The position numbers and the translations under genes are program-made. From a virus: a stretch of DNA of 64,000 nucleotides. The stretch covers positions 2,293-66,292 of the IMG/VR virus record IMGVR_UViG_3300029438_000229; one strand, 5' to 3'. Under the pieces are notes generated by a model, which was not told where the DNA came from, ran no database searches, and worked only from the letters and a program-made list of their open reading frames with translations. This document shows, piece by piece, positions 4,882 to 62,834 of the stretch. Numbering within the stretch: position 1 is the stretch's first letter; each line of letters begins with the position of its first letter.

Positions 4882-4925
4882 TTTGTCTGTTCTCCTTAAT
4901 TTTTTATTTTTTTCACCATTGCGTT

Positions 4926-5261: not shown

Positions 5262-5265
5262 TTTC

Positions 5266-5544: not shown

Positions 5545-5587
5545 TTTGGCAATAGCATCTTTGACACTCTGCTTTACGACTCGATTT

Positions 5588-6177: not shown

Positions 6178-6199
6178 TGTGATTTCTCCTTTTTTGGTG

Positions 6200-7557: not shown

Positions 7558-7580
7558 GATTTTTCCTTATCTTATCGTGC

Positions 7581-8462
7581 TTAGCAGTAAAAGAACGCCA
7601 GCATCTCATCGTTTGCCATCTGCCCCCATGCCGTTTCCGGATGAAGTGCGGCAAAAGCGTGGTCGGCTTCTTTTACATTGCAGAATACGAATTGATGGTA
7701 CTGGTGGTTGGTTTTCAGCAGCTTCACATAACGTTTTGTCTGTCCTTTCAGGAAATCTCCTTTTCCGGAACAAAGAAAGCACGGCGGCAGCAGCTTGCAA
7801 TAGTATTCGGGACGAATATTGGAAGCGTACTTCTCTTTGCGCCATCCCTTCTGCATGTAGTTGTCCGCCAGCAATCCAACCTGACCTTTGTAAAGGTAGA
7901 ACATCCCACTCTGAAAACCCATGGCAGTCACGCGGAGAGCCTGAACCTTTTGCGGGATATACCTTTCAAGGCGGCGGATGACCGGCTGCATCTCGGCAGG
8001 ATGGTGTAGTGAAGCAACGGCCATAGAGGCCAAGAAAGCACCGGCACTGTCTGCGGTAACGAAGAGTTTTTCGATGTTGCCGCCGAACTCTGCCGCTTTC
8101 GCTTCAATGACTGCGAGCGCATCGAGAATATCCGAGATTTGTCCGAAGATATCCGTTTCGGGAACCAGACGGTAATCGGGGATAAAAACGATATAGCCTC
8201 TTCTTGCCAGTTGGATACCAAGATTCCTGTTCTGTTCTTTGCGGCCGGCAATCAAGCCCCCGCTATGAACATCCAGGATGATGGGTAGTGGTTCTTTGAC
8301 CTCTCCGACTGGTTTGTAGACATCCATAGAAAGTCCTAAACATTTTCGAACCGGGATGGTAACAATATCGACAAGGCCGCTGTTGTGCATATGCGGCTGG
8401 CTGCGAATGATTTGTTCGACATGGATGCGCTCCTTTACGGAAGCACGAGTAATGATATTCAA
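7581..8462 (-). CDS. alpha/beta-hydrolase fold-3 esterase/lipase-like protein
   Basis: TTG 8462 behind AAAGGAG, which aligns with the start of paralog 6200..7105. The HSGG, ADSAG (nucleophile elbow) and DHAF motifs are intact. Confidence 0.7.
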   Translation of the reverse strand: MNIITRASVKERIHVEQIIRSQPHMHNSGLVDIVTIPVRKCLGLSMDVYKPVGEVKEPLPIILDVHSGGLIAGRKEQNRNLGIQLARRGYIVFIPDYRLVPETDIFGQISDILDALAVIEAKAAEFGGNIEKLFVTADSAGAFLASMAVASLHHPAEMQPVIRRLERYIPQKVQALRVTAMGFQSGMFYLYKGQVGLLADNYMQKGWRKEKYASNIRPEYYCKLLPPCFLCSGKGDFLKGQTKRYVKLLKTNHQYHQFVFCNVKEADHAFAALHPETAWGQMANDEMLAFFYC

Positions 8463-15452: not shown

Positions 15453-17522
<2,070 letters not shown>

Positions 17523-30207: not shown

Positions 30208-32946
30208 TCAAAAATCCCCGAACGAGAGCTGACGGCTCTGTGAGACCGGGATATTGGTTTTTGGCTTTGACGAGTGCTTAACTTCCCCGTACTTGGTGAG
30301 ATTCCGGCATTTATATCCGTAGCCCTTCTGTGCGGCAGAAATCGACTTGTATCCGTATCCGCTTGCATCGTCCAGCACCTGGTCCTTGTCGTTCAGATTG
30401 ACGACAATATACCGCACATCGTTGGGCTTAGAGAGCCGGGACGAACGAATAACGGTATAGGGGATGCGCTTATCGAATTGAGGCTTTTCTTCTTCCGGGT
30501 CCGGTTCGGGCTTTGCGACCTTCTCCTCTTCCGGCATTTCAAGCTGGACATCGACCCCTGCCTTAACGAGGGATTCGAGCGTAGAGGCAAGGGTCTCGTA
30601 CCGCGTATTCTCCACGGTATTCGTATCCTGCTTCTTCCGCTCCTTCCAGACCTTCAACAGCTGACGTTCGCTGAAATTGATGATAAGACCACGGTCTTTG
30701 AGCATCTTACGAACAACATAGGTAGAAAGAGAAGCGTAGTTCGCATATTCGCCGATATGGTGCTTGATATCCACCTCGGTCTTGGACATAGCTGCTTCGA
30801 AATCCCTGTGATTGTCGAGCCAATCCTCAATAACGCTGAGCAGTTCCTTCTTGGACATGGATTCCTCTGCCAGCTGCTTGTTTTTCCGGACATAATCCTC
30901 ACAGGCAGCGAGAATCGAATCGTAGCCGTTCATGGCGCTGTTATCGATGATTTGACGGTTTGCAGCATCCACAATGATGTACTGCTCACCACGGCGGATG
31001 ATAGAGATACCTTCATCAGCCGTCTTCTTTTCTTCCTTGACATTGCCGCCGACATCGAATTCCGGCAGAGAATCATCGGTCATGATTTGCTCGATGATGG
31101 TATCGAGGTCCTGCGTATAGTCCTTGGAAATCGTATAGCTTTCTGCCTTGGCAAAGACCTGCTTCGTGATACAGGTGATTACCGCGTCCAGGAACTTGTC
31201 AGGGTCCGGAATCTCGATTTCATACATCATGTTATCGCGGATATTCCAGACAACACCCTGCTTTAACCCGGTTGCCAGCATATAGCAGGCACATTGCAGG
31301 AAATGCTTGTGCGCGAGCGAAGACACGAATTTCAGCAAATAGACCTTGTTGTCCTTCACGACATCCGCCATGCCGCTGATAACAAGTTTCTTCTTCGCCT
31401 TGGTATCTACCACGGCAGTCAACTCACAGCGTTCCTGTACGGACTCGTCGGGAGTGAACACCATAGACAAGCGCTTGTTCAGGTCGGTTTCCTGCGCTCT
31501 CGTAATAAAGGGCAACTCAACCTGCTTCACATACCGGTCCTGACTCGTCATCAGCATCGTCAGGAACAGGACCTTCTCCTCCACGGATTTCCAGCTGGAA
31601 GGCAGCGCCACCTTCTTGTCGTTATGCAGGTACATGTAGAAGGCAATCGCACTGTCGATATCGTAATAATCGAAGAAGTTCGCCTGCTGGTAGATGCCGA
31701 TGCAGGGAGCCAAATCAATCATCGCATCCGAATGCTTGATTTCGATTTCATGTACATCCTTATGGAAGACCGGCGTCGTATTGATAAGCTGGTAGCAGTG
31801 CTCCACATCCTCATCGAACTTGAAATCGAACATCTCAGAGATATCGAACTTTGTATTGAACTCCTGATTTATCTTGACGGGAGTCATCAGAGTCTTATCG
31901 CTGACCAGCCCAAATCTGTCCTCTTTTTTCGGAGGCTCTACAAAGATGACCTCATCCTTACCGCGACTCGCCGCAACGCAGAAAAGGTTTCTCAGAATCT
32001 CATACCGCGCCATAGGCTGAAATACACGAGAGCACCAGTAGGATTCCGTGAAATCAAAGACAACACAGATGGGGCGCTCCATGCCTTTACTGCCGTCAAA
32101 GGTCGTAAAGATACCAACGTCTGCACCGGGTGCTACATGCTTTTCGCCATCAGGTTCCTTGATGCTGGCATATACATGGTTCTTGTCATAGAGGTTGCCG
32201 GGTCTTGCTTCAAGTTCATTCAGAACCTTTACCATAGACCCCGTTCTGGCACCGAGACACAGGACATCCTTCGGGTTCTTGGTATCCAGATAGTCTATCA
32301 CCTGCTCACGGGACATGGTCGATACCTTACAGTTCTTGTTCACGCCGTTGATATCCTTGCCCCAGATGTTTCCGAGCCGCTGTGCGAGGTCATGGGACAG
32401 GCGGAAACATTGCGTGAAATTGACCTGTGTGTGCTTGCCTAAGAACTTATGGATGAACGACCAGATATCCAGCGAGGTCTGGTCATAGATTTTCTGCTTC
32501 ATGTCCCCAACCGCGATGATTTGAAGGCCTGGGTTCGATTCCTTGATGTATTCGAGCATCTTCGAGATTTCCTCGTTGATGTCCTGATACTCGTCGATGA
32601 TAAGCACATCAAAGTGCCCGACAGGAACGCGCTTCCTCAAGACCATCCCAATCTGCTCGCCCTGTCCGACATTCTTGATGCCGCGCCGGTACAGGATTTT
32701 CGAGGCAAATCCATGATAGTTCTGGACCGTGACATTATCGTTTAGAATCTTTTCCTGCGCATCGAGTTTCAAAAGCCGGTTATAGGTCAGGTACAGAATC
32801 TCCTTAGAGGAATCAAACTCGTTGCACAAAACATTGATGGTGGACGTCTTACCGCTTCCGATACAGGCATCGCACAACACGTTTTTCCCGTCAAGCGCCA
32901 GCCGTACAAGGTCCTGCTGTTCGCTGGACAAGTCATTGAGCGTCAT
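30208..32946 (-). CDS. UvrD/PcrA-like SF1 helicase with RecB/Cas4-like nuclease segment
   Basis: Trimmed to ATG 32946 (GGAGGG SD). Walker A GSGKTST, IIDEYQD motif II, and a central ADVV...LLKF...QCACY nuclease-like pattern. The C-terminal 300 aa are unknown, with two short internal repeats. Confidence 0.8.
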   Translation of the reverse strand: MTLNDLSSEQQDLVRLALDGKNVLCDACIGSGKTSTINVLCNEFDSSKEILYLTYNRLLKLDAQEKILNDNVTVQNYHGFASKILYRRGIKNVGQGEQIGMVLRKRVPVGHFDVLIIDEYQDINEEISKMLEYIKESNPGLQIIAVGDMKQKIYDQTSLDIWSFIHKFLGKHTQVNFTQCFRLSHDLAQRLGNIWGKDINGVNKNCKVSTMSREQVIDYLDTKNPKDVLCLGARTGSMVKVLNELEARPGNLYDKNHVYASIKEPDGEKHVAPGADVGIFTTFDGSKGMERPICVVFDFTESYWCSRVFQPMARYEILRNLFCVAASRGKDEVIFVEPPKKEDRFGLVSDKTLMTPVKINQEFNTKFDISEMFDFKFDEDVEHCYQLINTTPVFHKDVHEIEIKHSDAMIDLAPCIGIYQQANFFDYYDIDSAIAFYMYLHNDKKVALPSSWKSVEEKVLFLTMLMTSQDRYVKQVELPFITRAQETDLNKRLSMVFTPDESVQERCELTAVVDTKAKKKLVISGMADVVKDNKVYLLKFVSSLAHKHFLQCACYMLATGLKQGVVWNIRDNMMYEIEIPDPDKFLDAVITCITKQVFAKAESYTISKDYTQDLDTIIEQIMTDDSLPEFDVGGNVKEEKKTADEGISIIRRGEQYIIVDAANRQIIDNSAMNGYDSILAACEDYVRKNKQLAEESMSKKELLSVIEDWLDNHRDFEAAMSKTEVDIKHHIGEYANYASLSTYVVRKMLKDRGLIINFSERQLLKVWKERKKQDTNTVENTRYETLASTLESLVKAGVDVQLEMPEEEKVAKPEPDPEEEKPQFDKRIPYTVIRSSRLSKPNDVRYIVVNLNDKDQVLDDASGYGYKSISAAQKGYGYKCRNLTKYGEVKHSSKPKTNIPVSQSRQLSFGDF

Positions 32947-32977
32947 TGTAATCCCTCCGAATAGTAGATTGGCAGGC

Positions 32978-33069
32978 AACAAAAAGACCCTGACAGCTAT
33001 CACAACAGCCATCAGGGTACATTTTTTAGTCTATAATTTAGATTGTATGCAGTTCGCACAAATGTGCAA
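32978..33069 (-). promoter_or_regulatory. promoter plus 5'-proximal hairpin/U-tract upstream of helicase gene
   Basis: TTGCAC(33069-33064)-16-TACAAT(33047-33042) with GTGCGAAC. Hairpin ACCCTGA..TCAGGGT 33018-32987, then CTTTTTGTTG, SD and ATG 32946. Confidence 0.6.
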
Positions 33070-37400: not shown

Positions 37401-37865
37401 TTAGTCATGAGGATGTTCGTGGCAGGGTTCAGGCGGCATACCATGCGGGTCAGGCTCAGGGAAGCGGCCATGGTCCCCGATGATTTCCGAAGTACGGATA
37501 CCGTTCGCTTTCCGACATGCCTCGATGGTCTTAGAAAGCACTTCCTTGACATCACGCGGATTCTTGATGCGGCGGATGTCGATTTCCGGTGTCATAGCAT
37601 CCGTAGAGCAGAGATGGATGCTGCCGACACGGCAAAGGCGCTCATAAAAGTTCTGCTTGAACGCGATGTCCCGGACGCGGTACAGCTGAATCTCATCCTC
37701 GCGCAGGTTAAAGCAGCCACGCTGGATGATGAGTTTGGTCTCGGTCAGGGTGTACTTTGTAAATGACAGTGGCAGAGAAAAGATGGTGTGGCGTTTGCGG
37801 TCGGTCCAGAGAATCTTCTCCTTGTCCAAGTCGATGCCGAACTCGCCGTTTTTGAGGGTGGACAT
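37401..37865 (-). CDS. bacterial PH-domain (bPH_2/YdbT-like) protein
   Basis: 154 aa; GAAAGGAG SD; His/Pro-rich tail. Confidence 0.6.
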   Translation of the reverse strand: MSTLKNGEFGIDLDKEKILWTDRKRHTIFSLPLSFTKYTLTETKLIIQRGCFNLREDEIQLYRVRDIAFKQNFYERLCRVGSIHLCSTDAMTPEIDIRRIKNPRDVKEVLSKTIEACRKANGIRTSEIIGDHGRFPEPDPHGMPPEPCHEHPHD

Positions 37866-37945
37866 GGTATGGCTCCTTTCGTTATGGGATTTGTTTGGGT
37901 TGTTGGTATTTATTAGTTGGTACTGAGATGATTTGAATTATTAAC

Positions 37946-37974
37946 ATTATACCATTTGTTTTTGCAATTTTCAA
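37946..37974 (-). promoter_or_regulatory. sigma-A-type promoter for PH-domain gene
   Basis: TTGAAA-17-TATAAT; no TGCGAA block. Confidence 0.5.
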
Positions 37975-38024
37975 TTGTACAAGAGATGGCACAAGGAATT
38001 TTCGTTTGTTCTTATGTTTTTTAT

Positions 38025-38762
38025 TTACATGTTATCTTTATTATCAAAATAATCTGTCACCTTTTTCAAGCTCTCTATACTGGCTACGGTAGAATAAATT
38101 TTGTATCCATAAGTTTTGTAATCTTGTGGAGCCGGATAGTCAAGCTGTATAAAATTTCCAACTCCTTCGAAAATTGCATAGCAAATAATAGGAATCCCAA
38201 TTTCAATCAGCATGTGTTTGTTATCAATTATCTTTCCAGATGCGTTTGAAATCGTCAGTTTGAAATCGTATCCACTTGTTGTATTTTCATGCAAAATTTT
38301 ATTTCTTAGATAGTAACATTTTTCCCCAGTAAATCCGTTGTCTGCGAGTGCTTTTCCATCCGGACCACCATTCTCTATTACATATTCATCAAACCATTTT
38401 TCATATCGATTTCTTACCTCAGTTTTGCCAAAATGGGCATATGCGATTGCTCCACATGTATCGGGCAACGTAAGTGCCAGCTGTAATGCTGCCCCATAAA
38501 GACCGAATTCCAAGCATAGATGTGCTTCCTTTGCTTTGGCGGCAATCGTATAATAAGTGTACCCATCCGGGCAGTCCAAGCCTGTAATACGCTCTTGACT
38601 TTTCAGTTCATTATAAAACGCATATTCGTTTGGTGCGAAGGGTCCATTTTTGTTTTCGCAGTACATTTCATGATTAACTCTTTGTAACTTTTCGTAGTAT
38701 TCCGTACATATCACGAAGATTCCATCTTTTGTCAATCCCATCCTTTTATCTTTCCCGTCCAT
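38025..38762 (-). CDS. hypothetical protein with HEPN/Abi_2-like Rx4H motif (tentative)
   Basis: 245 aa, AT-rich, with its own promoter. YYLRNKILHEN contains R-x4-H. Confidence 0.6.
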   Translation of the reverse strand: MDGKDKRMGLTKDGIFVICTEYYEKLQRVNHEMYCENKNGPFAPNEYAFYNELKSQERITGLDCPDGYTYYTIAAKAKEAHLCLEFGLYGAALQLALTLPDTCGAIAYAHFGKTEVRNRYEKWFDEYVIENGGPDGKALADNGFTGEKCYYLRNKILHENTTSGYDFKLTISNASGKIIDNKHMLIEIGIPIICYAIFEGVGNFIQLDYPAPQDYKTYGYKIYSTVASIESLKKVTDYFDNKDNM

Positions 38763-38789
38763 CTTAGAACCCCCTATCTATATTAAACC

Positions 38790-38886
38790 AAAAACCTCCC
38801 ACCGCAGTCAGCATGCTACTGATTACGATGGGAGGCTCAAACCTTTTGTGATAGTCTTATTATACCACGCTTCGTGAATTACTCAA
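38790..38886 (-). promoter_or_regulatory. promoter plus hairpin/U-tract upstream of HEPN-like gene
   Basis: TTGAGT-16-TATAAT (38886-38859). Stem CCTCCCA..TGGGAGG 38835-38795, then TTTTTGG before ATG 38762. Confidence 0.5.
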
Positions 38887-39089
38887 GACCAATCTCAATA
38901 ATTCAGTCAATATCCAAGTTGTCAAATTCTTTGTGAGGACGAAGATGCTCTGGACGGATGTATTGGGGTTGGTTCAGGACATCTGTCTCGGCGTTGAGTG
39001 CTGATAAGGACTGCTATAGTTTTTGGGGTGATGGTGGTTACGATGTCATGGTGAGCGCTTGTTACGGTTTTGTTCGTTACTGTGGCATA

Positions 39090-39209
39090 TCAATCGTCGT
39101 CATCATCATTCTTATCATAGCCACTGCACTCTTCACGATGTTCGCAAAAATCGCAACAGCAATCATCTGTAAACTCACCGGTTTCCCAGCATAAGTCGGT
39201 AGGATACAT
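39090..39209 (-). CDS. 39-aa Cys-rich acidic micro-protein
   Basis: AAAGGAGG SD 8 nt before the ATG. MYPTDLCWETGEFTDDCCCDFCEHREECSGYDKNDDDDD. Confidence 0.45.
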   Translation of the reverse strand: MYPTDLCWETGEFTDDCCCDFCEHREECSGYDKNDDDDD

Positions 39210-39464
39210 TACAAGACCTCCTTTCACATATCTCTAATTTTTCTCTTCTGATTTGCTCACAAGTTTTTTCGCGACAGATATTCTTCCAATTTTAGATAAT
39301 CCATAGTTATTATACACCATTTCTGTCCTTTTCAAAATGGTTTAGTATATTCTTAGCTTTCTCCTTCACCTTCCTCATATATTCTTCCATATACACCCAG
39401 TCAGGCTGACCGGTCTTGTCTATGGGAAGCATAATTCTTGCAACATAAAAACAACATCGGTATG

Positions 39465-40601
39465 TCAATTATCCGACTTCACCGCATTGCACTTTTTGCA
39501 CAGCATCTGCAGGTTGTTGTCGGTGGTATGCCCGCCCTTGCTCCAAGGAATGATGTGGTCGCCTTCCATATCCTTAAAGGCGTACTCGGTGTTGATGCCA
39601 TTTGCAACGCACAAGGGACACTTGTGACCTTGCCGCTCATAGGCGCGGAGTTTCTGCGACTCAGTGAATGCGCGAAGGGACAGGTGCTTCTCATCGCGCC
39701 AAGTACGGTCAGAGAGGATAAACGGGATGATGCCTGCCTTCTTGGTTACGTCATCATCCAGCACGAGTTTCTTGATGTCAGCTTCCAGAGCGTTGCTGTT
39801 GTACTGCTTTGCATGATACTTGTTGTAGAGCAGTCCCCATGCCTGTGCATCCGTAATTCCCTTCCGTTTCGTCGGGAACAACATCTTCGCCCAGTTGATG
39901 ACAGACTGGAAGTAAAGCCAGAGGTCATTGGCATCCTCGTCATGCTGGTGAACCGCCATGTACATCTGCCCGGATTCCAGACCGTCACGGTCAGCAATCC
40001 ATGCCAGTGCTTTTTCCAGCAACTCCTGCCGAATCGGGTTGCCTTTCAGGTATCCGTCCGCCATCTTCGCAGCAACGCAGTTGCGTTTCGAAAAGTAGTT
40101 TTTGGCATCAGCCAGCCACGGTCCTGTGTATGTAGCGTTCAGAAGCTCCTGCGGAGTCAGAACTTCGCCAGCAATGTTAATGCGCTTGAACCATTCCAAT
40201 TTCTCGGCTTCAGTGCCTTCGCAGACATAGACCGTCAGCTCATAGTCCAGAATTGCCTGCTTTTCCTCGTTGGTCAAGTTTTGGAAGAACTTGTCGTTGC
40301 CATTGATTTTGATAGGAAAATCCTTGTTAATGTACTGGGCAATAGAGACGGTACGCTGCTGCCCATCAAGAACCTCGTATGTGTCAGCCCCGGTCTTAGA
40401 CCAGTACATGACATTCAGCGGAAATCCGTTCATTACGGAATCGATGACGGCTGCACGCTGCTTCTCCCCGTAAATAAACTCACGCTGGAAGGATGGGCGA
40501 ATCGTAAGACGGTCATTGTAGCCAAAGACACCGCCATCGCCATTATCCTTGTAGTTTTCGACAAGGTCAGATACCTTGATTTTCGTTTCTGTGATTTTCA
40601 T
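39465..40601 (-). CDS. DUF262 (ParB-like) plus HNH nuclease fusion
   Basis: 378 aa. SFQREFIY...VIDSV...LDGQQRT, and a C-terminal CPLC...GDHIIPWSKGG...NLQMLCKKCN. ATGA overlap with the upstream gene. Confidence 0.8.
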   Translation of the reverse strand: MKITETKIKVSDLVENYKDNGDGGVFGYNDRLTIRPSFQREFIYGEKQRAAVIDSVMNGFPLNVMYWSKTGADTYEVLDGQQRTVSIAQYINKDFPIKINGNDKFFQNLTNEEKQAILDYELTVYVCEGTEAEKLEWFKRINIAGEVLTPQELLNATYTGPWLADAKNYFSKRNCVAAKMADGYLKGNPIRQELLEKALAWIADRDGLESGQMYMAVHQHDEDANDLWLYFQSVINWAKMLFPTKRKGITDAQAWGLLYNKYHAKQYNSNALEADIKKLVLDDDVTKKAGIIPFILSDRTWRDEKHLSLRAFTESQKLRAYERQGHKCPLCVANGINTEYAFKDMEGDHIIPWSKGGHTTDNNLQMLCKKCNAVKSDN

Positions 40602-41356
40602 AGTTGTTTACGACCTTTCTTCTTTTGAGGCGTACACTCTTTTTTAATCTGCTTACGGAGCTTAGCCTCTTGTTGCTCTCGTAATTTCCGTAATGCATCT
40701 GACGGTGCAGCTGTATCCGGTTTTACATCGCCGCCATCCTGATACCACCCGGCAGAATCATGCATTATATCGACGATATATGTTTGACACTCCCCGCCGA
40801 TACTTTGTTCTGCGTGATATTGGAATACATCGATGTTCTCAAGAAGGCACCCACGAGTTAATGAAATAGCGTTAGCGAGCGAAAGATTCTTATAGTCGAT
40901 TCCGGAATTCATTATGGCGTGTGCAACATCAGTAATACCGTTATATGAGGCTCCATAAGAGCCAATTTCTGTTGATAAAACAATAGATGATTTGGCAGTG
41001 TCGATAGTGTAAGTACAAGCCATTCTCCCAAATTCTAAATACCCACTAATCTTAAATATTGTGCAGCCGTTACCATTGACGCGGAAGTATTCATTCAATA
41101 TTTTTAACGGCAAATCATCAATGGTGGCTTGCTTCCCATATTTTTTACGTATATCATATAAGAATTGCATTACGGTCAGGTTTTCTCTTACTTTTGCATC
41201 GCCACAATGGCTTACAACGATACGATTTGGAAAAGGTACTATTTTTTCGGCAGTGTCATCGTATTGAACATGCCCTTTACCATCCCTGCGAGTAGTGCGC
41301 GTATCAGCGCAGACAACAATGCCTTCAGGAACAATAGTATGTATAATCAGTGACAT
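40598..41356 (-). CDS. proteasome-beta/HslV-type Ntn-hydrolase-like protein
   Basis: ATG 41356 (GAGG SD, 1 nt after the MTase stop). MSLIIH-TIVPEGIVVCADTRTT...AEKIVPF...SHCGDAKV matches the Thr-protease core pattern. Basic Lys-rich tail. Confidence 0.6.
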   Translation of the reverse strand: MSLIIHTIVPEGIVVCADTRTTRRDGKGHVQYDDTAEKIVPFPNRIVVSHCGDAKVRENLTVMQFLYDIRKKYGKQATIDDLPLKILNEYFRVNGNGCTIFKISGYLEFGRMACTYTIDTAKSSIVLSTEIGSYGASYNGITDVAHAIMNSGIDYKNLSLANAISLTRGCLLENIDVFQYHAEQSIGGECQTYIVDIMHDSAGWYQDGGDVKPDTAAPSDALRKLREQQEAKLRKQIKKECTPQKKKGRKQL

Positions 41357-41357
41357 A

Positions 41358-42401
41358 TCACGCCTCGGCTTTCTTTTGAATGAAAATCCGCTGATAAACC
41401 GAATGTAAGTATTTTCCGTGCTTACTAACACTGTAATCGCATTTACCTTTACCCGGAATTTTTGGGGACATTTTATCTCTCAATGCGCCGGACCCAGAAG
41501 GCGAAACTCCGTCAGTCTTCAAAAATGTGTATTCGCCGTCAGGATAATACACTTCAATTCGGCAAGGCGTATCATCGAACATGGAACCACCAACAATCTC
41601 AAACTCATCCGGGTTATACTTATCCAGAAATGTGATAGGTACGCCCATAACACCCTTGTAATCCACCGGGATATCCGCAACCCTGTCTACATTGATGGCA
41701 TCGTAGTTATCGTAGTGGGGGTAGCGCTCCTCCGCATCCGGCAAAGGATTCCCGTCATCGTCATAGTACCGCTGCCAGAGAATCAGCTTTTCGTGGCGCT
41801 TCTGGATATCGAGGTTGGTATACCACAATTTATTCCCGAATTTTTTGATTGTCCCGTCAGGTTGTACGAATTCTTTTACAGAAGAATATCCAAGCCAGAC
41901 TTCATTGTTCTTTAGCATCGGGAAAATTTCTTTGTAAGTAATCCAGTTGAGGTCTCCGATGATAACAAATTGCTTGCCATGCTCGCGTAAACACTGGACA
42001 TAAGCCCTTGCAAGGGAAAAGGGCGGATTCGTTACCACAATATCGCTCTCATCCAGCAAGTCGAGACATTCCTTGTTTCGGAAATCGCCGTTACCTTCCA
42101 GCGGGGTCTTAACTCCGACTTCCACATTGTTGTCGTCCCCACCCTCGTATTCCATCTTGTAGGTGGGCTCGGTGCGGTCGTAGTGTGTGGAAATCAGCTT
42201 CTTTAAGCCGAGCTCAGCGAAGTTCAGGTGGAAATACCGCCAGAAAGCAGACCAAGTGGGGTCGTCACAGTTACAGAATACAACCTTGCCCGCAAAATGC
42301 TTTTTGTAGTGCCGCAGTTCCTCCGCGACATCCTCGATTCTGGTATAGAACTCGTCGTTCTTAGCGTCTTTCGCTTTATGCAAATTATCGTTCTTTGCCA
42401 T
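41358..42401 (-). CDS. EcoRI-family N6-adenine DNA methyltransferase
   Basis: ATG 42401 behind GGAGGATACGGAG. KNDEFYT...FCNCDDP..SAFWRYF..NF..LGLKKL N-terminus and VTNPPF motif IV. Confidence 0.8.
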   Translation of the reverse strand: MAKNDNLHKAKDAKNDEFYTRIEDVAEELRHYKKHFAGKVVFCNCDDPTWSAFWRYFHLNFAELGLKKLISTHYDRTEPTYKMEYEGGDDNNVEVGVKTPLEGNGDFRNKECLDLLDESDIVVTNPPFSLARAYVQCLREHGKQFVIIGDLNWITYKEIFPMLKNNEVWLGYSSVKEFVQPDGTIKKFGNKLWYTNLDIQKRHEKLILWQRYYDDDGNPLPDAEERYPHYDNYDAINVDRVADIPVDYKGVMGVPITFLDKYNPDEFEIVGGSMFDDTPCRIEVYYPDGEYTFLKTDGVSPSGSGALRDKMSPKIPGKGKCDYSVSKHGKYLHSVYQRIFIQKKAEA

Positions 42402-42412
42402 CTCCGTATCCT

Positions 42413-42448
42413 CCAAAAACAAAACCCCCGATGCCGTAACATCGGAGG
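42413..42448 (-). terminator. terminator-like hairpin directly before the MTase / Ntn / DUF262-HNH operon
   Basis: CTCCGATG..CATCGGGG stem plus GTTTTGTTTTTGG, followed by the SD of gene 42401. Confidence 0.55.
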
Positions 42449-42460
42449 CGTAAAAATCAA

Positions 42461-43774
42461 TTATTTATCGTTAAGAATCGCCAGCAACTCATCGAGGCTG
42501 GTCACATACTGGTATTTTCTCGCCATCTCACCAGGCACTGGAATCAACTCGCTCATGTAATAAAGAACCTGCACTCCGTTGCTGGTGCATTCGTTATACT
42601 TGTCGGTATCCCGCTGCTTTCGTGCCTCGAAATCCCCGTCATCGCTGCCGTAGGGGTAAAAGTGCTGCACACCCTGACACTCGATGGCGATGTTCTTGCC
42701 TGGCAGGAAGAAATCCAGACGCTTCTTCCCCATCCACGGAAACATCTTTTCCCGCTGATACTCGATACCGTTGCATTTGAGCATCATGAGCACATCGTTT
42801 TCGAGGTAGGACTTCTCGCGCAGGAAATCTTCCGTATTTCGGTAGATTACCGGCTTGGCAGTCTGACTGATAGCTTTGTTGGGGTTCAGTTTCTTGTAAT
42901 GCACGGTCGTCGGTCGGACATAGACGACCTTGCCGCTTTGCAGATGCCGGAAATGTCCGCAACGCTCAGATTGGAGCACGCAGAACCCGGCAAACGCCCG
43001 TTTCCCAGCACCGTCATTCACATAGACGACGATGCCCTTTTTGAGGTCCACGATAGTCTGCTTGGAGGTATTCAGGCATTCTCTGACATCCTTGACCGTT
43101 TCCTGCTCCCCGTTCGCGTGTACGATGCGCTGCTCGACCTTCCGACTCAAACGCCGCCGTTTCCAAAGGCATATCGTGTGCAGCCAGATTTGCAGTATCA
43201 GCGCCGCTGAGCTTGGAGCCGTCACGGTGTTCCGTTCATGTAGGGAATCGCGCTCGGTTCGCAGCCACCGTTCCAGCATGTTGCCAGACTCGTTCAGAAC
43301 GGAAAGGTAGCCGTATACCCCATTCCGGGTGTTCACTGCCATCATCAGCCCGTCCACGCCGAATTCCTTCTCTGCCCTTTTCAGCTCGACAAATACCGCC
43401 ATTTCCCGCATCCGCCAGTTGTCGGTAGGCATGACCATAGCACAGGTATTCTCGCCCTCAAAGCCTACGAGAATCGGGCATAGGAAAGTTGTGTCAGCCC
43501 TTCTGTGGACAATGATATATAATGACGCACCGTAGGTATCATCTACCTTGATAGCGTACTCATCGTAGGGCTCAAGCCCATACTCGCCGCGATTCAATCG
43601 AAAGTCACCGATGACCGATTCGTTGTCGGTCGTGAGTTTCGCAATGGTAGGCAGCTGCAGGATACGAGTAAGACCCTTGACGACCTTATAGCATTCTGCG
43701 CTCTTCCCTTGCATTTGGTACTTGTCATGCGTCAAGTAGAATTCGCGTTGCCATTCGGCGCTATTATTATTCAT
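42461..43774 (-). CDS. protein with C-terminal DUF559/Vsr-like endonuclease fold
   Basis: 437 aa. RLDFFLPGKNIAIECQGVQH...D..K pattern in the last 90 aa; the N-part is unknown. Confidence 0.6.
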   Translation of the reverse strand: MNNNSAEWQREFYLTHDKYQMQGKSAECYKVVKGLTRILQLPTIAKLTTDNESVIGDFRLNRGEYGLEPYDEYAIKVDDTYGASLYIIVHRRADTTFLCPILVGFEGENTCAMVMPTDNWRMREMAVFVELKRAEKEFGVDGLMMAVNTRNGVYGYLSVLNESGNMLERWLRTERDSLHERNTVTAPSSAALILQIWLHTICLWKRRRLSRKVEQRIVHANGEQETVKDVRECLNTSKQTIVDLKKGIVVYVNDGAGKRAFAGFCVLQSERCGHFRHLQSGKVVYVRPTTVHYKKLNPNKAISQTAKPVIYRNTEDFLREKSYLENDVLMMLKCNGIEYQREKMFPWMGKKRLDFFLPGKNIAIECQGVQHFYPYGSDDGDFEARKQRDTDKYNECTSNGVQVLYYMSELIPVPGEMARKYQYVTSLDELLAILNDK

Positions 43775-43797: not shown

Positions 43798-44910
43798 TTA
43801 GTGCCGAGAATCTGTAGGTATGTTATTTTCTGAATCAAGTGCTTTTAGCATCTGTTCAGCTAATGCCACCGAAAGCAGCGGCGGGACCGCGTTGCCGATT
43901 TCTAAGCGTTTCAGGCAATCCGAGCCGTAGAACTGATAGCTGTCAGGAAAACTCTGCAACCGTGCTCCTTCACGTATCGTAAGTGCCCTCGAATCTCTCG
44001 GATGGATGCATCTTGATGAGGACGGACAGGCAAAGTTCCGTGTGATGGTAGTGGCGGGTTTCTCCCACCAGAGTTTCGCGTAGGTGTTCTTGAACCCGCT
44101 CTTTGGTCTGAGTTCTTCCGGCAAATCATCTTTGCCTTGCCCATCTTTGAGCGCCGCCATGATTCTGCGAAGATGGGCGCTGTTGTTCGGGGCTTTATGC
44201 TCCGTGAGCGTAGCGGATTCACTCTGCCGGACCCATTGAAGGAATGTATTGCCGGGAGGAGCGGCATACACGGTGCTTTCCTCCCCGCACGAGAGCGCAG
44301 GCAGGTCTTTAAGTGCATCTTGCAGCGTCACATACGGTAGTAGTCCTTCTCCGTGGGTAGGTTCCGGGTATTGAAAGTCATTCTCGCCCAAGAACCCAAC
44401 CAGAATGACCCGTTCCCGCAGCTGCGGTACACCGTAGTCTACGGCATTGAGGATTTTGTATTGGAGGCTGTACCCAATATCCTCGAATTCTTTGCGGACA
44501 TGCTCAAACAGGGCTCCTTTATCCATGCTCAGAATGCCTTTGACATTCTCGAACAAGAAGGCTCTCGGATGCAGGATACAGAGAACGCGCTTGTATTCCA
44601 TGAAAAGATTTGCCCGCGCATCCATTTGGCGTTTACCAAGCGTGGAGTACGACTGACACGGCGGACCACCGACCACGACATCCACTGTACGGTTTCCTAT
44701 CGCTTGACGGAGGATATCTTCAGACAGGTCTTTGATGTCGCCCTGCAGCATATTGACCGAAGGGTGGTTTAGGGTATATGCTTTCGCAATATCCTTTTGC
44801 ATCTCGTTCGCCAAGATGATTTCAAAGCGGTCGTTTCTTGAAAACCCGTAACTCAATCCGCCTACACCTGCGAACAGGTCAACGACGGTGTATTTTCTTG
44901 TCTCTGGCAT
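43798..44910 (-). CDS. DNA (cytosine-5)-methyltransferase
   Basis: Trimmed to ATG 44910. DLFAGVGG (I), GGPPCQSYS (IV), FENVKG (VI), QLRERV (VIII), GNAVPP (X). Confidence 0.9.
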   Translation of the reverse strand: MPETRKYTVVDLFAGVGGLSYGFSRNDRFEIILANEMQKDIAKAYTLNHPSVNMLQGDIKDLSEDILRQAIGNRTVDVVVGGPPCQSYSTLGKRQMDARANLFMEYKRVLCILHPRAFLFENVKGILSMDKGALFEHVRKEFEDIGYSLQYKILNAVDYGVPQLRERVILVGFLGENDFQYPEPTHGEGLLPYVTLQDALKDLPALSCGEESTVYAAPPGNTFLQWVRQSESATLTEHKAPNNSAHLRRIMAALKDGQGKDDLPEELRPKSGFKNTYAKLWWEKPATTITRNFACPSSSRCIHPRDSRALTIREGARLQSFPDSYQFYGSDCLKRLEIGNAVPPLLSVALAEQMLKALDSENNIPTDSRH

Positions 44911-44921
44911 GATGACTCCAA

Positions 44922-44953
44922 TAAAAAATCCGGCACGAATCACTCATGCCGGA
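44922..44953 (-). terminator. weak terminator-like hairpin between the two C5-MTase genes
   Basis: TCCGGCA..TGCCGGA stem (7 bp, 11-nt loop) plus TTTTTTAT. Confidence 0.35.
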
Positions 44954-45921
44954 CAATGACTTTCTTGCTCTTCAATTTTGCTCAAGATACGGTACAGTTC
45001 CGTTCCCACGACTCTTGCAAGTTCGCAAGGCACTGCATTACCGATTTGCTTATACTTGCTCGTCAGATTCCCGCAAAAAACCATATCTTTCGGGAATGTC
45101 TGGATAGCAGCTGCTTCTTTATAGGACAAGCGCCTTGTACTGCCTTTCTCCCCGAACTGCCAATGGTCTTTGCCGACCTTCACCATGTCTGGTGACCCGG
45201 GCCAGAGAGGCACTTGCTTTGCCATAGCGGGAATTGTGAACGATACGCTGTCCCATCCGCGTTTCCGGTTCCGGGACATGTAGCGCGAGGAGTAGGCTTC
45301 TTTGCAAATTTCATCTTCTGCCGCCGGTGCTAAACTCTCTAACGCCTGTCGGATACTGATACGGTCAGGAAAAGGTGTAGGAACCTTGAACTTTACGCCA
45401 TACCTCTCAGCAAGGTCTTTTCGGATGCCCACAAGGAGGATTCGCTGTCTATCTTCCGGGACATGATAGTCCGCAGCATTGACAAGGTTGATAGACACTA
45501 CATATCCCTTGCTCTCGAAATCCGCGATGATAGCGTCCTTGATTTTCCCGCCACCAAGCGTCAGCAAGCCTTTGACGTTCTCGGCGAGGAACAACTTTGG
45601 CTGCTTCTTTTCGACCAGCTTGACGCAATGCCGGTAGAGCACATTCCGGCTATCGTCGATTTTCCTTGGTCCCGACAGGCTGAAACCCTGGCACGGGAAT
45701 CCAAAGGAAGCAATATCGCAATCTGGGATGGTATCGTAGTCCACTTTGCCGATGTCGCCTTCTACCACCGTGGCATTGCTCCACAGCCTATGTGTCTCAC
45801 AGGCATCATGGTTGAAGTCGTTCGCCCATACCGGGCGAAACCCGGCTTGCTCTAAGCCGATATCGAGTCCCCCTGCACCGGAAAACAGAGAGACATGCGT
45901 GTATACTTTGTTCTTATTCAT
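44944..45921 (-). CDS. DNA (cytosine-5)-methyltransferase
   Basis: Trimmed to ATG 45921. LFSGAGG, FGFPCQGFS, AENVKG, DRQRIL, GNAVPC. Confidence 0.9.
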   Translation of the reverse strand: MNKNKVYTHVSLFSGAGGLDIGLEQAGFRPVWANDFNHDACETHRLWSNATVVEGDIGKVDYDTIPDCDIASFGFPCQGFSLSGPRKIDDSRNVLYRHCVKLVEKKQPKLFLAENVKGLLTLGGGKIKDAIIADFESKGYVVSINLVNAADYHVPEDRQRILLVGIRKDLAERYGVKFKVPTPFPDRISIRQALESLAPAAEDEICKEAYSSRYMSRNRKRGWDSVSFTIPAMAKQVPLWPGSPDMVKVGKDHWQFGEKGSTRRLSYKEAAAIQTFPKDMVFCGNLTSKYKQIGNAVPCELARVVGTELYRILSKIEEQESHCPA

Positions 45922-45963
45922 TTTGGCCCTATAAAAAATGAGCGATAAATGCGCGGAATGCAC

Positions 45964-46003
45964 AAAAAACACACGCGCTCATTTATCGAATGCACGCGTG
46001 TGT
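45964..46003 (-). terminator. intrinsic terminator
   Basis: ACACACGCG..CGCGTGTGT stem plus TTTTTTG. Confidence 0.6.
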
Positions 46004-52515: not shown

Positions 52516-54681
52516 TTAAAGATTAAAGATGCCCAGCCAGCGCCGAAACTTGATGCCGAACAATTCCTGTGCCTGCTCGTAGTTCATGATAAGCTGGTTG
52601 CCGCCAGAAATCTCTGCTTCGAGGGAGTTCGGCAGCTCGTCTGCAATGTATTTCAGTTCGTACCAGGGTCCATCCTGCGGGTAGGTATAAATGAGCCGGT
52701 TCTGCTTCTTATCCACCCGGAACTTGCTCGGGTCTGCCTGCCATGCCAGTTCGATTTTCTCAATCGCAGCACGGCCAATGCTCTCATCACCCATGTAGTC
52801 GTTGTAATACAGGATGCGCACATAGTCCGGCAAATCGATTCCGCAAGCCTCGAAGATATCTGCAATGACACTGGACGAAGCGTGGAAGATATCCGGGAAG
52901 TATTCCTTGCCATTCGCATTTTCACGCATTTCCGTCGTCATCTCATCGATGCTAACAAGCATTCGGCGGACATACTCCCCATAGAACGCGGTAGTCAGCT
53001 CCGACATACTCTCATTCACACGCTTCGAGTTCTTGGCACCGCGCTCGTTGTCGATTTTAGCACCGATTCGACAGATGATAGCGCGTTTCGAGAGGTCTTT
53101 CGTCAACGAAGTGATTTTATTGGATGTGATAGATACAGCAGGATAGTTCACGAGCCTATCAGAGATTCCCCATTCATCGTTCTTGATTACCCGTTCTGAA
53201 TGGTTCTGGAACTGGGTCTTGGCGAGGTCGTCGATGTTCAGCGGCAGTCCCTCACATACTCGTTTGAGGCCATCGATTCTTGTGGCTGTAAAATCCTCCG
53301 TTGTGTTCATCTTGACGGTCTCGCCGCACATGAGTTTGACAAGAAATTTTATAAAGGTCGTCTTGCCGCCGTTTGAGTCGCCGTATATAACGCCATACAT
53401 CGGGAACAGTTTGGTGTCGTAATTGTTCCTTGATGCAAAATACCGTAGATACGCCATGAACGGAGTAGCCAGATACCAGGTCATGTACTTAAAGTAGTCT
53501 TTCTTAGCCTGCTCGACATCGCCGTAAAAGTAGTCCATGCCTGAGAAGAACTTCTGGATGCTCTTGATGTTCTTTGCCACCTCGCTGAGATTCGGATTGA
53601 GGTCGATATTCTCGTCGTTGAAGGTCATGGTCCCTGCATCATAGTCGATATGCAGTTTCGGAAGCTGCTTAACAGCCTCAGCTGCTACACGCCGAACCTC
53701 GGTATATCGTTTCGTAAAAACACGCATCGGTTCCGCTGCCACCACAATACGATTCGCCTGTACCGGCATCTTAGGCATAATCGGCTTGACGAGCTCCTGC
53801 ATCTTCTTGACATCGGCGACTATTTCGTATTCTACCTCGTCCTCAGGTTGCGCCTGTTCCAAAAAGATAAGCTTCTGCTTTTCAATGGATTGGAAGACGG
53901 GCACTTCTTTGATGTTCTCTTTCAGATAATCTTCCTGATTCATGGTGTTCACGACTGCCTTATACGAAACGTTGTCGGAGCAGGTCTCCTTGAAGGTCTC
54001 GAACAGAGCCTTATAATGCGAAAATGCCGCCTCGTCATCGAAGCAAACGATATTCTCTCGCTGGATGCCGCAAAACGCCGATGCCGACATATTCGCACTG
54101 CCAGTGATGACTCGGACCCGCTTACGGTCAGCGCTCTCCAAGATGAAGATTTTCTCGTGCGATTTCGTGTCCCGCGATACATACAGTTGTAAGGACCCGT
54201 CATCGAGGCGGTTCGCAAGGATTCCTGCCGACTTAGACTTAGCGAGCTGCTGCACGCTGTCGATTTGCACCGACATGATGGCAGCGATGTCGGTGGCGAT
54301 GATTTTCTCGCATCCGAACACGACTTCCGCATACGAGAACTTGTTGATGACCTTATTCACGAACTCGATTCCGGACGAAAAAGTGATAGCATAGAGTCTG
54401 TCGAACCCGTCAAACAACTCTTCCCAATTCGTTTCGACCGTATCGGCATATATCGCCTTCACAACACTCAGCGCCTGCGTGGAGATGCTCGCCTTTGCCT
54501 TCGTGGTATTGTTCGCCACGAGTTTGAATGGTTTATCCGTCTGCCCTTCACTGTCCCCTGTATCTTCACCGGGGTCCAAGAGTTCTTCCGGGCCTTCTTC
54601 GGTATATTCGGGGCTTTCCGATGCCATCATGTCCATGAGCGACATCTGATTTTCCAAGTCGTTTGCTTTCCTTCGTGCCAT
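52516..54681 (-). CDS. PLD-family nuclease-like domain fused to SF3-type (D5/P4-like) helicase
   Basis: 721 aa. SHEKIF...ITGSANMSASAF is the HxK...GSxN PLD motif. Walker A GDSNGGKTT, Walker B LNIDDL, motif C ITSN. Confidence 0.7.
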   Translation of the reverse strand: MARRKANDLENQMSLMDMMASESPEYTEEGPEELLDPGEDTGDSEGQTDKPFKLVANNTTKAKASISTQALSVVKAIYADTVETNWEELFDGFDRLYAITFSSGIEFVNKVINKFSYAEVVFGCEKIIATDIAAIMSVQIDSVQQLAKSKSAGILANRLDDGSLQLYVSRDTKSHEKIFILESADRKRVRVITGSANMSASAFCGIQRENIVCFDDEAAFSHYKALFETFKETCSDNVSYKAVVNTMNQEDYLKENIKEVPVFQSIEKQKLIFLEQAQPEDEVEYEIVADVKKMQELVKPIMPKMPVQANRIVVAAEPMRVFTKRYTEVRRVAAEAVKQLPKLHIDYDAGTMTFNDENIDLNPNLSEVAKNIKSIQKFFSGMDYFYGDVEQAKKDYFKYMTWYLATPFMAYLRYFASRNNYDTKLFPMYGVIYGDSNGGKTTFIKFLVKLMCGETVKMNTTEDFTATRIDGLKRVCEGLPLNIDDLAKTQFQNHSERVIKNDEWGISDRLVNYPAVSITSNKITSLTKDLSKRAIICRIGAKIDNERGAKNSKRVNESMSELTTAFYGEYVRRMLVSIDEMTTEMRENANGKEYFPDIFHASSSVIADIFEACGIDLPDYVRILYYNDYMGDESIGRAAIEKIELAWQADPSKFRVDKKQNRLIYTYPQDGPWYELKYIADELPNSLEAEISGGNQLIMNYEQAQELFGIKFRRWLGIFNL

Positions 54682-61524: not shown

Positions 61525-61750
61525 GAAGGAGGGGGCTTGTAGTCCCGCAGGACTCCAATTTTTTTCCCACTCGACGGACTGTTAGGCACGGTTGCTGTCC
61601 GTGCGACCGAGTACAATGGGCGTTCACCGCTGTTGCAGGCGGCATAGCTGTGGTGAGAATTGGATTATGCGGGATACAGTCCCAATAACCCTACATTGCG
61701 AATGTTTATGGCAGCGTTGTGGTCACGGTTATGTGTCGTGCCGCAGGCGC
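61525..61750 (-). ncRNA. putative TnpB guide-RNA (omega/reRNA) scaffold
   Basis: The expected position is the 3' end of tnpB plus about 140 nt downstream. The region has dense nested hairpins: GCACGG..CCGTGC, CGGAC..GTCCG, GTCC-CGCA-GGAC, CCCCC..GGGGG. Confidence 0.35.
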
Positions 61751-62810
61751 TGCATGTCCAAACGCGGTCAGCAAGCGTGAGGTCGTCTTTTATGAAACCA
61801 CAAACGCTGCAGGTTTTGCTGGACGGATACCACTTATCGATTTTGGCAAAGGTCTTTCCTTGCGATGTGAGTTTATACTCAAGCATCGTGCGGAACATAC
61901 CGAAGCCATTATCGTTTGTGGATTTACCAAGCTTCAGGGAACCAGCCAAACCGCGCAGGTTGATGTCTTCCACAAATACAGCATCATACTGCTTGGCTAT
62001 CGCAGCACTTACCGTATGGCAGAAGTTCTTGCGCTGATTGGCTATATGTTCATGCAAAAGCTGAATTTTATGCAGTTGTTCGTTATAATTTTTAGAGCCC
62101 GCTTCCATACGAGACAGCTTGCGCTGCTCTTTTGCAAGTTTCTCTTCACTCTGACGATAGAATTGCGGATAGTTGGCCACTTTGCCGTTGCTGTCAACAT
62201 AAAAGTCATGGGAAGAATAATCTAAGCCAAGAGATTTCTCTTTGGTGGGAACAATAGGCTGGATATCCTTCTCGAATTCATACAGCAGTGAAACGAAATA
62301 CTTGCCGCTGCGGGTACAGCTGACGGTAGCGCCTTTTAGTACCCAGTCGGCATCCGGTTGACGGTGTACTTTAACTTTTACATTGCCTACCTTTGGCAGA
62401 TGAACAAGATTGCCGACAACATAAACGGTATTCTTGATTTTGCCGTCTTTGCTTTGCGTTTTTTTGTTGTTTGTTGTGTACGACATTTCGTTCCTGTGTT
62501 TGCTTTTCAATCTTGGGACACCAACGGCTTTTGGACTCTCCAGATGCCGCTTGTTTGCATCTTTCAAATCAAGCTGTGTGTTTGCAAGAGCAAGGCTATC
62601 CACCTCTTTCAGAAACGGAAACTCCTTTTTGTATTTGGCAGGCGTAGGAACAAAAAAAGTTCCCGCTTCGTCCAGAAACTGCTGTGCATCTATAAGCATA
62701 TGGTTCCAGATAAAACGTACGCAGCCAAAGGTTTTGGCAAACAGAACCTGCTGTTCTGATGTTGGATACGCACGATATTTTATTGCTCTATTTAGTTTTT
62801 GCACAGGCAC
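61665..62810 (-). CDS. tnpB: TnpB (IS200/IS605-family RuvC-like RNA-guided nuclease)
   Basis: RAIKYRAYPTSEQ...FGCVRFIWN N-terminus. C-terminal CSVCG...CSACG zinc finger plus NRDHNAAINI. GTG 62810 (8 nt after GAAGGTGG) is preferred over the track GTG 62822. Confidence 0.85.
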   Translation of the reverse strand: MPVQKLNRAIKYRAYPTSEQQVLFAKTFGCVRFIWNHMLIDAQQFLDEAGTFFVPTPAKYKKEFPFLKEVDSLALANTQLDLKDANKRHLESPKAVGVPRLKSKHRNEMSYTTNNKKTQSKDGKIKNTVYVVGNLVHLPKVGNVKVKVHRQPDADWVLKGATVSCTRSGKYFVSLLYEFEKDIQPIVPTKEKSLGLDYSSHDFYVDSNGKVANYPQFYRQSEEKLAKEQRKLSRMEAGSKNYNEQLHKIQLLHEHIANQRKNFCHTVSAAIAKQYDAVFVEDINLRGLAGSLKLGKSTNDNGFGMFRTMLEYKLTSQGKTFAKIDKWYPSSKTCSVCGFIKDDLTLADRVWTCSACGTTHNRDHNAAINIRNVGLLGLYPA

Positions 62811-62834
62811 TGCTGTCACCACCTTCTATTATTT

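Follow-up and report, generated by a model that had tools for sequence, protein, structure and literature searches.

Within a 64,000-nucleotide stretch of viral DNA (IMG/VR record IMGVR_UViG_3300029438_000229; this whole stretch is called the window here, and all coordinates refer to it), a gene for a proteasome-like hydrolase lies between the genes for an EcoRI-family adenine methyltransferase (MTase) and a DUF262-HNH nuclease. Here we report that the junction of MTase and nuclease is a low-GC, hypervariable, one-gene-wide slot with fast turnover, present in a family of large mobile elements of human-gut Firmicutes, and that the N-terminal nucleophile (Ntn) hydrolase gene within it is an independently mobile, swappable cassette. 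On balance we consider it probable that the Ntn gene is embedded cargo encoding a stand-alone effector of immune type.

The slot was surveyed in 31 IMG/VR loci whose nuclease shares at least 92% identity with that of the window. The Ntn gene occupied it in 2 of the 31; the remainder held unrelated genes, with at least 13 unrelated alternatives to the Ntn gene. Occupants share their orientation, have a GC content of 0.26-0.41 and end no more than ~30 nt from the nuclease ATG, frequently overlapping it as ATGA. They include a TIR protein (PF13676 7e-21; PADLOC PDC-S66 9e-42), a CAP12/Pycsar-type TIR protein (PF10137 1.6e-22; PADLOC PDC-S35 9e-24), DUF4145 proteins, a HEPN protein, a membrane-HEPN fusion, a DUF4238 protein, a weakly AbiV-like protein and several membrane or unknown proteins; judged by these family matches, most identifiable alternative cargos carry immune-effector domains. 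One locus (L020) holds tandem cassettes, Ntn and DUF4145, in a single slot. Several slots that had appeared empty were mostly ruled out as such when six-frame inspection found open reading frames (ORFs) with starts overlapping the MTase end, and the same inspection found no ORF longer than 76 aa in the slot of L027 and L028. The 220-aa slot gene of L026 was considered as a divergent Ntn gene and rejected (hhalign probability 0.2%). Two further loci carry truncated genes, the MTase in L032 and the cassette in L038.

Between loci with different cargo, the Shine-Dalgarno sequence and start codon of the nuclease mark the exact point at which homology begins, and each cassette supplies the ribosome-binding site for the downstream nuclease. 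No conserved att- or attC-like site was seen at the cassette boundary among the compared loci. In one locus (L003) the Ntn allele shows a nonsynonymous divergence (dN) of 0.32 and a saturated synonymous divergence (dS) against a dS of 0.31 for the flanking nuclease, and therefore reflects allele replacement, not divergence in place. The slot exchanges cargo by recombination, with a sharp right boundary at the nuclease ribosome-binding site.

The three genes lie on the minus strand in the 5' to 3' order MTase, middle ORF, nuclease (Table 1). An earlier note on this DNA, made from the sequence alone, had described them as tightly packed, which is correct: a single nucleotide separates the TGA of the MTase from the ATG of the middle ORF, and the TGA of the latter overlaps the ATG of the nuclease as ATGA. 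Because the whole region of ~28-47 kb is a single dense co-directional gene array, the close spacing of the three genes, taken alone, is ordinary for its surroundings and not in itself unusual. Ahead of them, as the same note had read it, stands a terminator-like hairpin instead of a promoter. The hairpin is located directly past the stop of an upstream 437-aa ORF and 22 nt before the MTase ATG, no promoter-like site was found between hairpin and MTase, and GGAGG precedes the MTase ATG. The middle gene is indeed richer in AT than its partners, with a GC content of 0.37-0.42 over 40600-41400 against 0.47-0.53 in its neighbours.

Both flanking proteins belong to the classes to which they had been assigned, an EcoRI-type adenine methyltransferase and a DUF262-HNH nuclease. 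The MTase scores 348 bits against PF13651, for which the curated cut-off is 26.4, and has the catalytic (D/N)PP(F/Y) motif as NPPF at residues 125-128. In addition to its DUF262 and HNH domains, the nuclease matches the PADLOC 'Type II REase' model (REase_II PDLC03418) over its full length (1.9e-131). It contains DGQQR at residues 79-83 and a zinc-ribbon HNH motif with CPLC at 328, DH at 348, an N and CKKC at 368; its C-terminus matches PF14279 as well as the HNH family PF01844, and a DUF1524 (GmrD) domain gave no Pfam match there at E<=0.01. The nuclease family comprises at least 7987 clusters (90% identity) at E<=1e-20. With a ratio of nonsynonymous to synonymous substitution (dN/dS) of 0.03-0.04, the nuclease is strongly conserved and anchors the slot on its right side.

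In plasmids of PLSDB, EcoRI-family MTase and DUF262 genes overlap or lie 1-4 nt apart with nothing between them. Such directly adjoining pairs were found in plasmids of three phyla, namely in Ligilactobacillus agilis and Macrococcoides canis (Bacillota), Aeromonas caviae (Pseudomonadota) and Gordonia (Actinomycetota), and a 7.5-kb plasmid of L. agilis has only a regulator (upstream), the MTase, the DUF262 gene and rep. Since the two genes adjoin or overlap in plasmids of three phyla, we conclude from gene order that MTase and DUF262-HNH nuclease constitute a genuine, conserved and widespread two-gene module resembling restriction-modification (RM), with restriction by the pair putative. Twelve Enterococcus plasmids also match the nuclease.

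The first ~270 residues of the MTase, its catalytic N-terminal part, are conserved between loci. Its C-terminal 60-100 residues (the last ~70-80, at 41358-41600, in the window; compared across L001-L062) belong to at least nine unrelated types, and this switching may represent target-recognition swapping without a change of nuclease. The C-terminal types assort independently of the cargo types, the Ntn gene occurring with three of them and the TIR gene with two, which rules out that MTase C-terminus and cargo are swapped as one unit. Because the nuclease remains 92-98% identical across loci while the MTase C-terminal region varies to this extent, the comparison suggests that the nuclease does not recognise sequence independently, as a Type II enzyme would; its specificity may come from the MTase, or it may work in some other way. 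Modification-dependent cleavage is argued against by the invariable pairing of nuclease and MTase, which suggests instead that the nuclease targets unmodified DNA or depends on the MTase.

The fold of the middle protein was settled by structure prediction and a broader family profile, not by single-sequence searches. On its own, the protein found no match in Pfam, NCBIfam or PADLOC, phmmer against the PDB returned noise, and the PHROG 'HslV family' was reached at E=0.13 only. A profile of the close family showed marginal sequence similarity to proteasome subunits (E=0.16), and its hhalign comparison with an approximate E. coli HslV sequence was non-significant. An AlphaFold (AF2) monomer model was built from an alignment of 32 close homologs, with a predicted local distance difference test (pLDDT) score of 92.2 and a predicted template-modelling (pTM) score of 0.88. 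Foldseek searches of the PDB with this model produced 398 matches at E<=1e-3 (best E 6e-10, template-modelling (TM) scores 0.62/0.77), and the top 50 were all beta subunits of the 20S proteasome or Anbu; the best match in BFVD (TM 0.70/0.80) came from a gut siphovirus and bears the annotation proteasome beta subunit. A profile search over 1.84 billion representatives gathered 534 relatives at E<=1e-3, and the broad family profile built from 77 of them matched proteasome beta chains in the PDB at E=5e-9. One family member (P0041) passes the gathering score of PF00227 (Proteasome; 26.3 vs 22.4), and its N-terminus weakly resembles the Connectase family (PF09894, E=0.067). By model and profile, then, the middle protein has the proteasome-beta (four-layer alpha-beta-beta-alpha) fold, and the proteasome/HslV-like Ntn assignment of the earlier note, which was to be abandoned if profile or structure searches failed to recover it, survives both. 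In the model, a long C-terminal helix (residues 221-241) is followed by a Lys-rich tail with 13 basic and 4 acidic residues.

The Ntn gene has a dN/dS of 0.11-0.15 and, judged by this ratio, is under purifying selection. Its close family is small, consisting of 51 clusters against the at least 7987 of the nuclease. No homolog was detected by tblastn in 50,697 deposited phage genomes (INPHARED) or 72,556 plasmids (PLSDB), and a scan of GTDB genomes for relatives returned two distant matches only. One of these two, a 237-aa relative (25% identity, beginning M-T), is encoded on a contig of a metagenome-assembled genome of Bathyarchaeota (CAWIYM010000003.1; L010 8001-8714). The Ntn family therefore extends beyond Firmicutes, and this archaeal relative would have a threonine nucleophile at the same position.

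For the active site, the motifs 'ADTR' and 'CGD' had been recognised correctly, and the nucleophile had been placed at Thr7. Our alignments place it at Ser2. Among 111 aligned sequences, 107 have Ser and 4 have Thr at position 2, and Asp18, Lys38 and Gly52 are conserved in 109 sequences each; of the best 145 family representatives, 121 begin with MS and 5 with MT, and most of the others look mis-started or fragmentary. Position 4 of the broad profile aligns with residue 3 of mature yeast beta1, which puts Ser2 opposite Thr1, and the same alignment pairs GIV..A.DSR.T with GIVVAVDSRAT, the conserved Lys with Lys33 and the CG(D) motif with Gly47. Thr7 varies even inside the close family. A Thr7 nucleophile behind a six-residue 'MSLIIH' propeptide was thus ruled out: the residue is variable, Ser2 corresponds to Thr1, and relatives start with M-S or M-T without an extension. 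The predicted nucleophile is Ser2, exposed by removal of the initiator Met; methionine aminopeptidase would expose the serine as residue 1, with no propeptide. The set Ser2-Asp18-Lys38-Gly52 matches the catalytic set Thr1/Ser1-Asp17-Lys33-Gly47 given for the proteasome-homolog family, newly described members of which lack propeptides (Fuchs, Alva & Lupas 2021, PMC8665760). From this conservation we infer that the middle protein is an active N-terminal-serine hydrolase. The serine nucleophile is near-universal in the family described here. Bacillus subtilis CodW offers a precedent for an N-terminal serine.

An identical Ntn protein is encoded in this context on many human-gut contigs, and the order MTase-Ntn-nuclease recurs outside the genome of the window with Ntn alleles 49-94% identical, so the possibility allowed by the earlier note that the three would never co-occur elsewhere can be set aside. 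The same order is also found in an unrelated neighbourhood (L070-L072), with the MTase 52% and the nuclease 39% identical. These three loci have an extra 86-aa ORF without a family match between the MTase and Ntn genes (~5750-6010 in L070), and a divergently transcribed HTH_3 gene upstream of the MTase, like an RM controller protein. In another locus (L069) an Ntn homolog sits in the slot downstream of the DUF262-HNH nuclease.

Ntn homologs also exist without this MTase or nuclease (L006-L009, L023, L066-L068). In L066-L068 (locus 4237-8455), the homolog P0044 (47% identity, tblastn) is flanked on both sides by paralogous DUF7487 proteins (581 and 582 aa); DNA methyltransferase and MADS 'mad2' models match the C-terminal region of the larger one (L066 4237-5985). 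Other homologs are found in phage-like neighbourhoods that contain either GIY-YIG nucleases, an Eco57I-like MTase and a ResIII helicase or a giant RNA-polymerase-like gene. No gene for an HslU-type AAA+ unfoldase was listed beside the Ntn gene in any of the examined loci. Given that the Ntn gene is in 2 of 31 slots, that the pair occurs without it and that it occurs without the module, the 'triad' is better described as a two-gene module with an embedded cargo gene. The coupled triad of the earlier note is consequently not borne out as a dedicated three-gene system, as the pair stands alone in three phyla and the gap between its genes is a hypervariable slot. A role for the protease as regulator or activator of the nuclease, which the note had also entertained, is unlikely, because the slot is hypervariable and the pair usually has no intervening gene.

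How might such a cassette act? In this family of gut Firmicutes elements the junction of MTase and nuclease has become a hypervariable cargo slot, in which the proteasome-like gene is one of many interchangeable single-gene cassettes. We propose that the Ntn gene would share operon expression with the flanking module and would not be mechanistically required by it. Its product would be an effector of conflict or abortive-infection type that acts on its own, probably as a protease cleaving phage or host proteins. This proposal is drawn from the precedent that a gene nested within a modification-based defence system frequently serves defence itself, a pattern that has guided discovery, with seven embedded candidates validated and 145 more proposed (Payne et al. 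2024, bioRxiv 10.1101/2024.01.29.577857). An effector in its own right was among the options of the earlier note and is the one that the data favour, with its function suggested by analogy. The note had further held that a protease wedged between such genes matches no known RM or defence architecture; this stands insofar as the proteasome-like occupant is absent from PADLOC models, and not for the arrangement as such, since an embedded unrelated gene is a described pattern (10.1101/2024.01.29.577857).

Several observations weigh against this proposal. On an Enterococcus dispar plasmid, pK205-4b-C (L073, NZ_CP116586.1, locus 572-2539), the same slot, flanked by an EcoRI-family MTase gene and a DUF262 nuclease gene, holds optrA, which confers oxazolidinone/phenicol resistance. 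Cargo therefore need not be immune-related, the site accepts genes of any kind, and embedding by itself is weak evidence for a defence role. The Ntn protein matches no PADLOC model, restriction by the flanking pair is itself putative, and the link of the Ntn protein to phage defence would be one of analogy. Its catalytic competence is read from residue conservation, and in the alignment the equivalents of proteasome Ser129, Asp166 and Ser169 are not evidently conserved. In addition, the Ntn gene is found again next to DUF262-HNH modules with only 39-44% identity to that of the window and no synteny with it (L069-L072), and this recurrence at divergent modules could reflect a functional tie, not chance embedding.

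Such a tie would be expected of an integrated three-part system, in which an exchangeable effector or 'backup' gene in the slot is functionally coupled to MTase and DUF262-HNH nuclease; the protease might be activated when nuclease or MTase is attacked, or when the NTPase domain of the nuclease senses foreign DNA. The model for this arrangement is PrrC, an anticodon nuclease encoded inside the EcoprrI hsd genes that is silenced by the RM complex and freed when a phage inhibits restriction (10.1101/2024.01.29.577857). Consistent with coupling, all cassettes point the same way and stop at most 30 nt from the nuclease ATG, in many cases overlapping it as ATGA, the Ntn gene accompanies deeply divergent modules (L070-L072 and L069), and the occupants (TIR, HEPN, protease and membrane proteins) recall the sets of exchangeable effectors found in modular immune systems. 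However, the module is complete with no gene between in plasmids of three phyla and, in L027/L028, with only short ORFs (<=76 aa); Ntn homologs exist without the module, the slot can hold an antibiotic-resistance gene, and the nuclease already has an effector domain of its own (HNH). We regard an integrated system as unlikely.

We also consider it quite unlikely that the protease is counter-defence cargo that benefits the element, for example by degrading host immune or SOS proteins during establishment in a new host, within an anti-restriction island made of several orphan methyltransferases. Four methyltransferases (N6_N4, two Dcm and the EcoRI-type enzyme) do form an array in the window, which belongs to a large mobile element. 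Methyltransferase arrays are typical of self-protective or anti-restriction regions in conjugative elements and phages. A related locus (L001) has type IV secretion system (T4SS) coupling and TraC/TraG-like genes, and relatives of the Ntn protein occur in phage-like contexts, the best BFVD match being from a gut siphovirus. Yet the identifiable slot alternatives (TIR/PDC-S66, CAP12-TIR/PDC-S35, HEPN, DUF4145, AbiV-like) are classes of defence effector, not of anti-defence, and the searched phage genomes and plasmids contained no Ntn homolog. Cargo unrelated to conflict, such as a specific protein-processing or ligating enzyme or a general peptidase that landed in a recombination-permissive site, would accord with the presence of optrA in the slot, with the lack of informative context for the new proteasome homologs (PMC8665760) and with the weak N-terminal match of P0041 to Connectase, a proteasome-homolog ligase. 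It is an improbable explanation, given that Ntn homologs are found in independent contexts inside or beside DNA-modification and restriction-type genes (the DUF7487 pair; Eco57I-like MTase, ResIII and GIY-YIG) and that the slot is shared mostly with immune-type genes.

A stand-alone effector carried as embedded cargo is the reading that we retain. Going further, we suggest only tentatively, and with more doubt than conviction, that the Ser1 proteasome-like protein represents a new type of prokaryotic immune effector: a single-gene abortive-infection or defence protease, or a transpeptidase, possibly one that, like PrrC, is silenced by the flanking pair until a phage or plasmid puts that pair out of action.

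As in guilt-by-embedding, of which PrrC within EcoprrI hsdMSR is the classic case, the genes of a DNA-modification/restriction-type module enclose an unrelated gene transcribed in the same direction, and the slot alternatives match PADLOC candidates from that approach (PDC-S35, PDC-S66) as well as known effector domains. The locus differs in its host module, which is an EcoRI-family MTase with a DUF262-HNH nuclease instead of Hma, BREX, DISARM or Type I RM; in its slot, which is on a mobile element, turns over very fast and has a sharp boundary at the nuclease ribosome-binding site, the occupant's function being suggested by analogy; and in its occupant, a proteasome-like hydrolase outside PADLOC. 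As in P2/P4 hotspots and those of integrative and conjugative elements (ICEs), conserved flanks here bracket low-GC, rapidly exchanged accessory genes rich in immune functions. The slot described here differs from these mobile-element hotspots in being only one gene wide and in lying inside an operon, between two functionally paired genes.

The likeness to Type II RM systems with EcoRI-family (gamma-class) MTases consists in the PADLOC MTase_II and REase_II matches and in the adjoining or overlapping pair; a constant nuclease with at least nine MTase C-terminal types is unexpected for a cognate sequence-specific pair. With the Type IV enzymes GmrSD, BrxU and SspE, the nuclease shares an N-terminal DUF262 ParB/Srx-like domain with the DGQQR NTPase signature (motif as defined in PMC4619093) and a C-terminal His-Me-finger nuclease domain. 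It departs from these enzymes in that it has a zinc-ribbon HNH domain (PF01844), not DUF1524, is short (378 aa) and without a long linker, and is invariably paired with an adenine methyltransferase.

Among the many proteasome homologs that bacteria and their phages encode, 22 new subfamilies including the Firmicute clusters FC1-FC5 have been described, with no genomic context hinting at a role (Fuchs, Alva & Lupas 2021, PMC8665760). The middle protein has in common with these and with HslV, Anbu, BPH and Connectase the beta fold, the absence of a propeptide and a distribution in Firmicutes and in association with phages, and with Anbu and 20S beta subunits the C-terminal helix. Unlike those families without informative context, the family described here has a recurrent one, and unlike HslV, which has the AAA+ unfoldase HslU as its partner, the Ntn gene has no such partner nearby.

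The surrounding genes are consistent with a large mobile element (Table 1). Upstream of the hairpin, the 437-aa ORF is 91-95% identical in related loci, is part of the DNA-modification array of the element and lies directly downstream of two tandem Dcm-type C5 methyltransferases; its C-terminal PHROG matches are to 'HNH/homing endonuclease' families, and it may act alongside the cytosine methylases as a mismatch-repair partner of Vsr-like type. On the other side of the nuclease, where the earlier note had seen a gene remnant, a short ORF (39310..39468) matches, weakly, the C-terminal end of the PADLOC 'Type II specificity subunit' model and was seen only in the near-identical loci L029-L031. 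The ORF and its match are there; its status as a remnant is plausible, not proven. Together with a low-GC 245-aa ORF, this possible specificity-subunit remnant occupies a second variable slot (37866-39464) between the nuclease and a bPH_2 gene (37401-37865). Related loci have in this second slot a 294-aa ORF, a 218-aa ORF, a combination of transmembrane, HNH and DUF4238, or the Ntn homolog of L069. Elsewhere the window encodes a TnpB/IS605 OrfB-type protein, a 721-aa PLD/NgoFVII-like nuclease, an NAD-dependent DNA ligase and a 934-aa UvrD-like helicase. A megablast search with 12 kb of the element found no match among PLSDB plasmids and INPHARED phages.

Table 1. Coordinates of the three-gene locus, its predicted active-site residues and neighbouring features in the window.
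Feature	Position	Strand	Evidence or remark
EcoRI-family N6-adenine DNA methyltransferase	41358..42401	-	347 aa; PF13651 6e-104; PADLOC MTase_II 3e-101
Proteasome-beta-like Ntn hydrolase (predicted)	40598..41356	-	252 aa; low-GC cargo gene in slot
Predicted active-site residues of the Ntn hydrolase	Ser2 41353..41351; Asp18 41305..41303; Lys38 41245..41243; Gly52 41203..41201	-	conservation
DUF262 (ParB/Srx-like) + HNH nuclease	39465..40601	-	378 aa; PF03235 1e-20, PF01844 6e-12
Terminator-like hairpin	42424..42449	-	11-bp stem, 4-nt loop, T-run; -20.6 kcal/mol, z = -3.0
Short ORF, possible C-terminal remnant of RM specificity subunit	39310..39468	-	40-52 aa; PADLOC Specificity_II E=0.0016
245-aa ORF, low GC	38025..38762	-	PHROG 18591 4e-11; no Pfam or PADLOC match
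437-aa ORF, C-terminal nuclease-like domain	42461..43774	-	PHROG 559 1.7e-18, PHROG 9084 2.4e-15, residues 275-404
Two tandem C5-cytosine DNA methyltransferases (Dcm-type)	43798-44943, 44944-45972	-	PF00145 7.8e-71, 4.4e-67
TnpB/IS605 OrfB-type protein	61665-62822		
PLD/NgoFVII-like nuclease	52516-54681		721 aa
NAD-dependent DNA ligase	15453-17516		
UvrD-like helicase	30208-33012		934 aa

In summary, a proteasome-homolog superfamily with function-unknown Firmicutes clusters and embedded defence candidates were both already known; what is new is an N-terminal-serine proteasome-family hydrolase, as predicted, that recurs in a one-gene, fast-exchanging slot within an RM-like module of abundant gut elements. 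Our literature search found no paper tying proteasome-like proteins to defence islands. The survey documents a sharply bounded, fast-turnover slot inside a module that is very abundant on human-gut mobile elements, to judge from the size of its nuclease family. Since an enterococcal copy carries the linezolid-resistance gene optrA, the slot is also relevant to the spread of accessory and resistance genes.

For one Firmicutes family of proteasome homologs, the locus gives a first functional hint, in the form of a recurrent slot shared with TIR, HEPN and Abi-like genes. If the Ntn protein does act in defence, this would be the first biological role for an orphan bacterial proteasome-homolog family, and the proteasome fold would join the enzyme folds common to bacterial and eukaryotic immunity.

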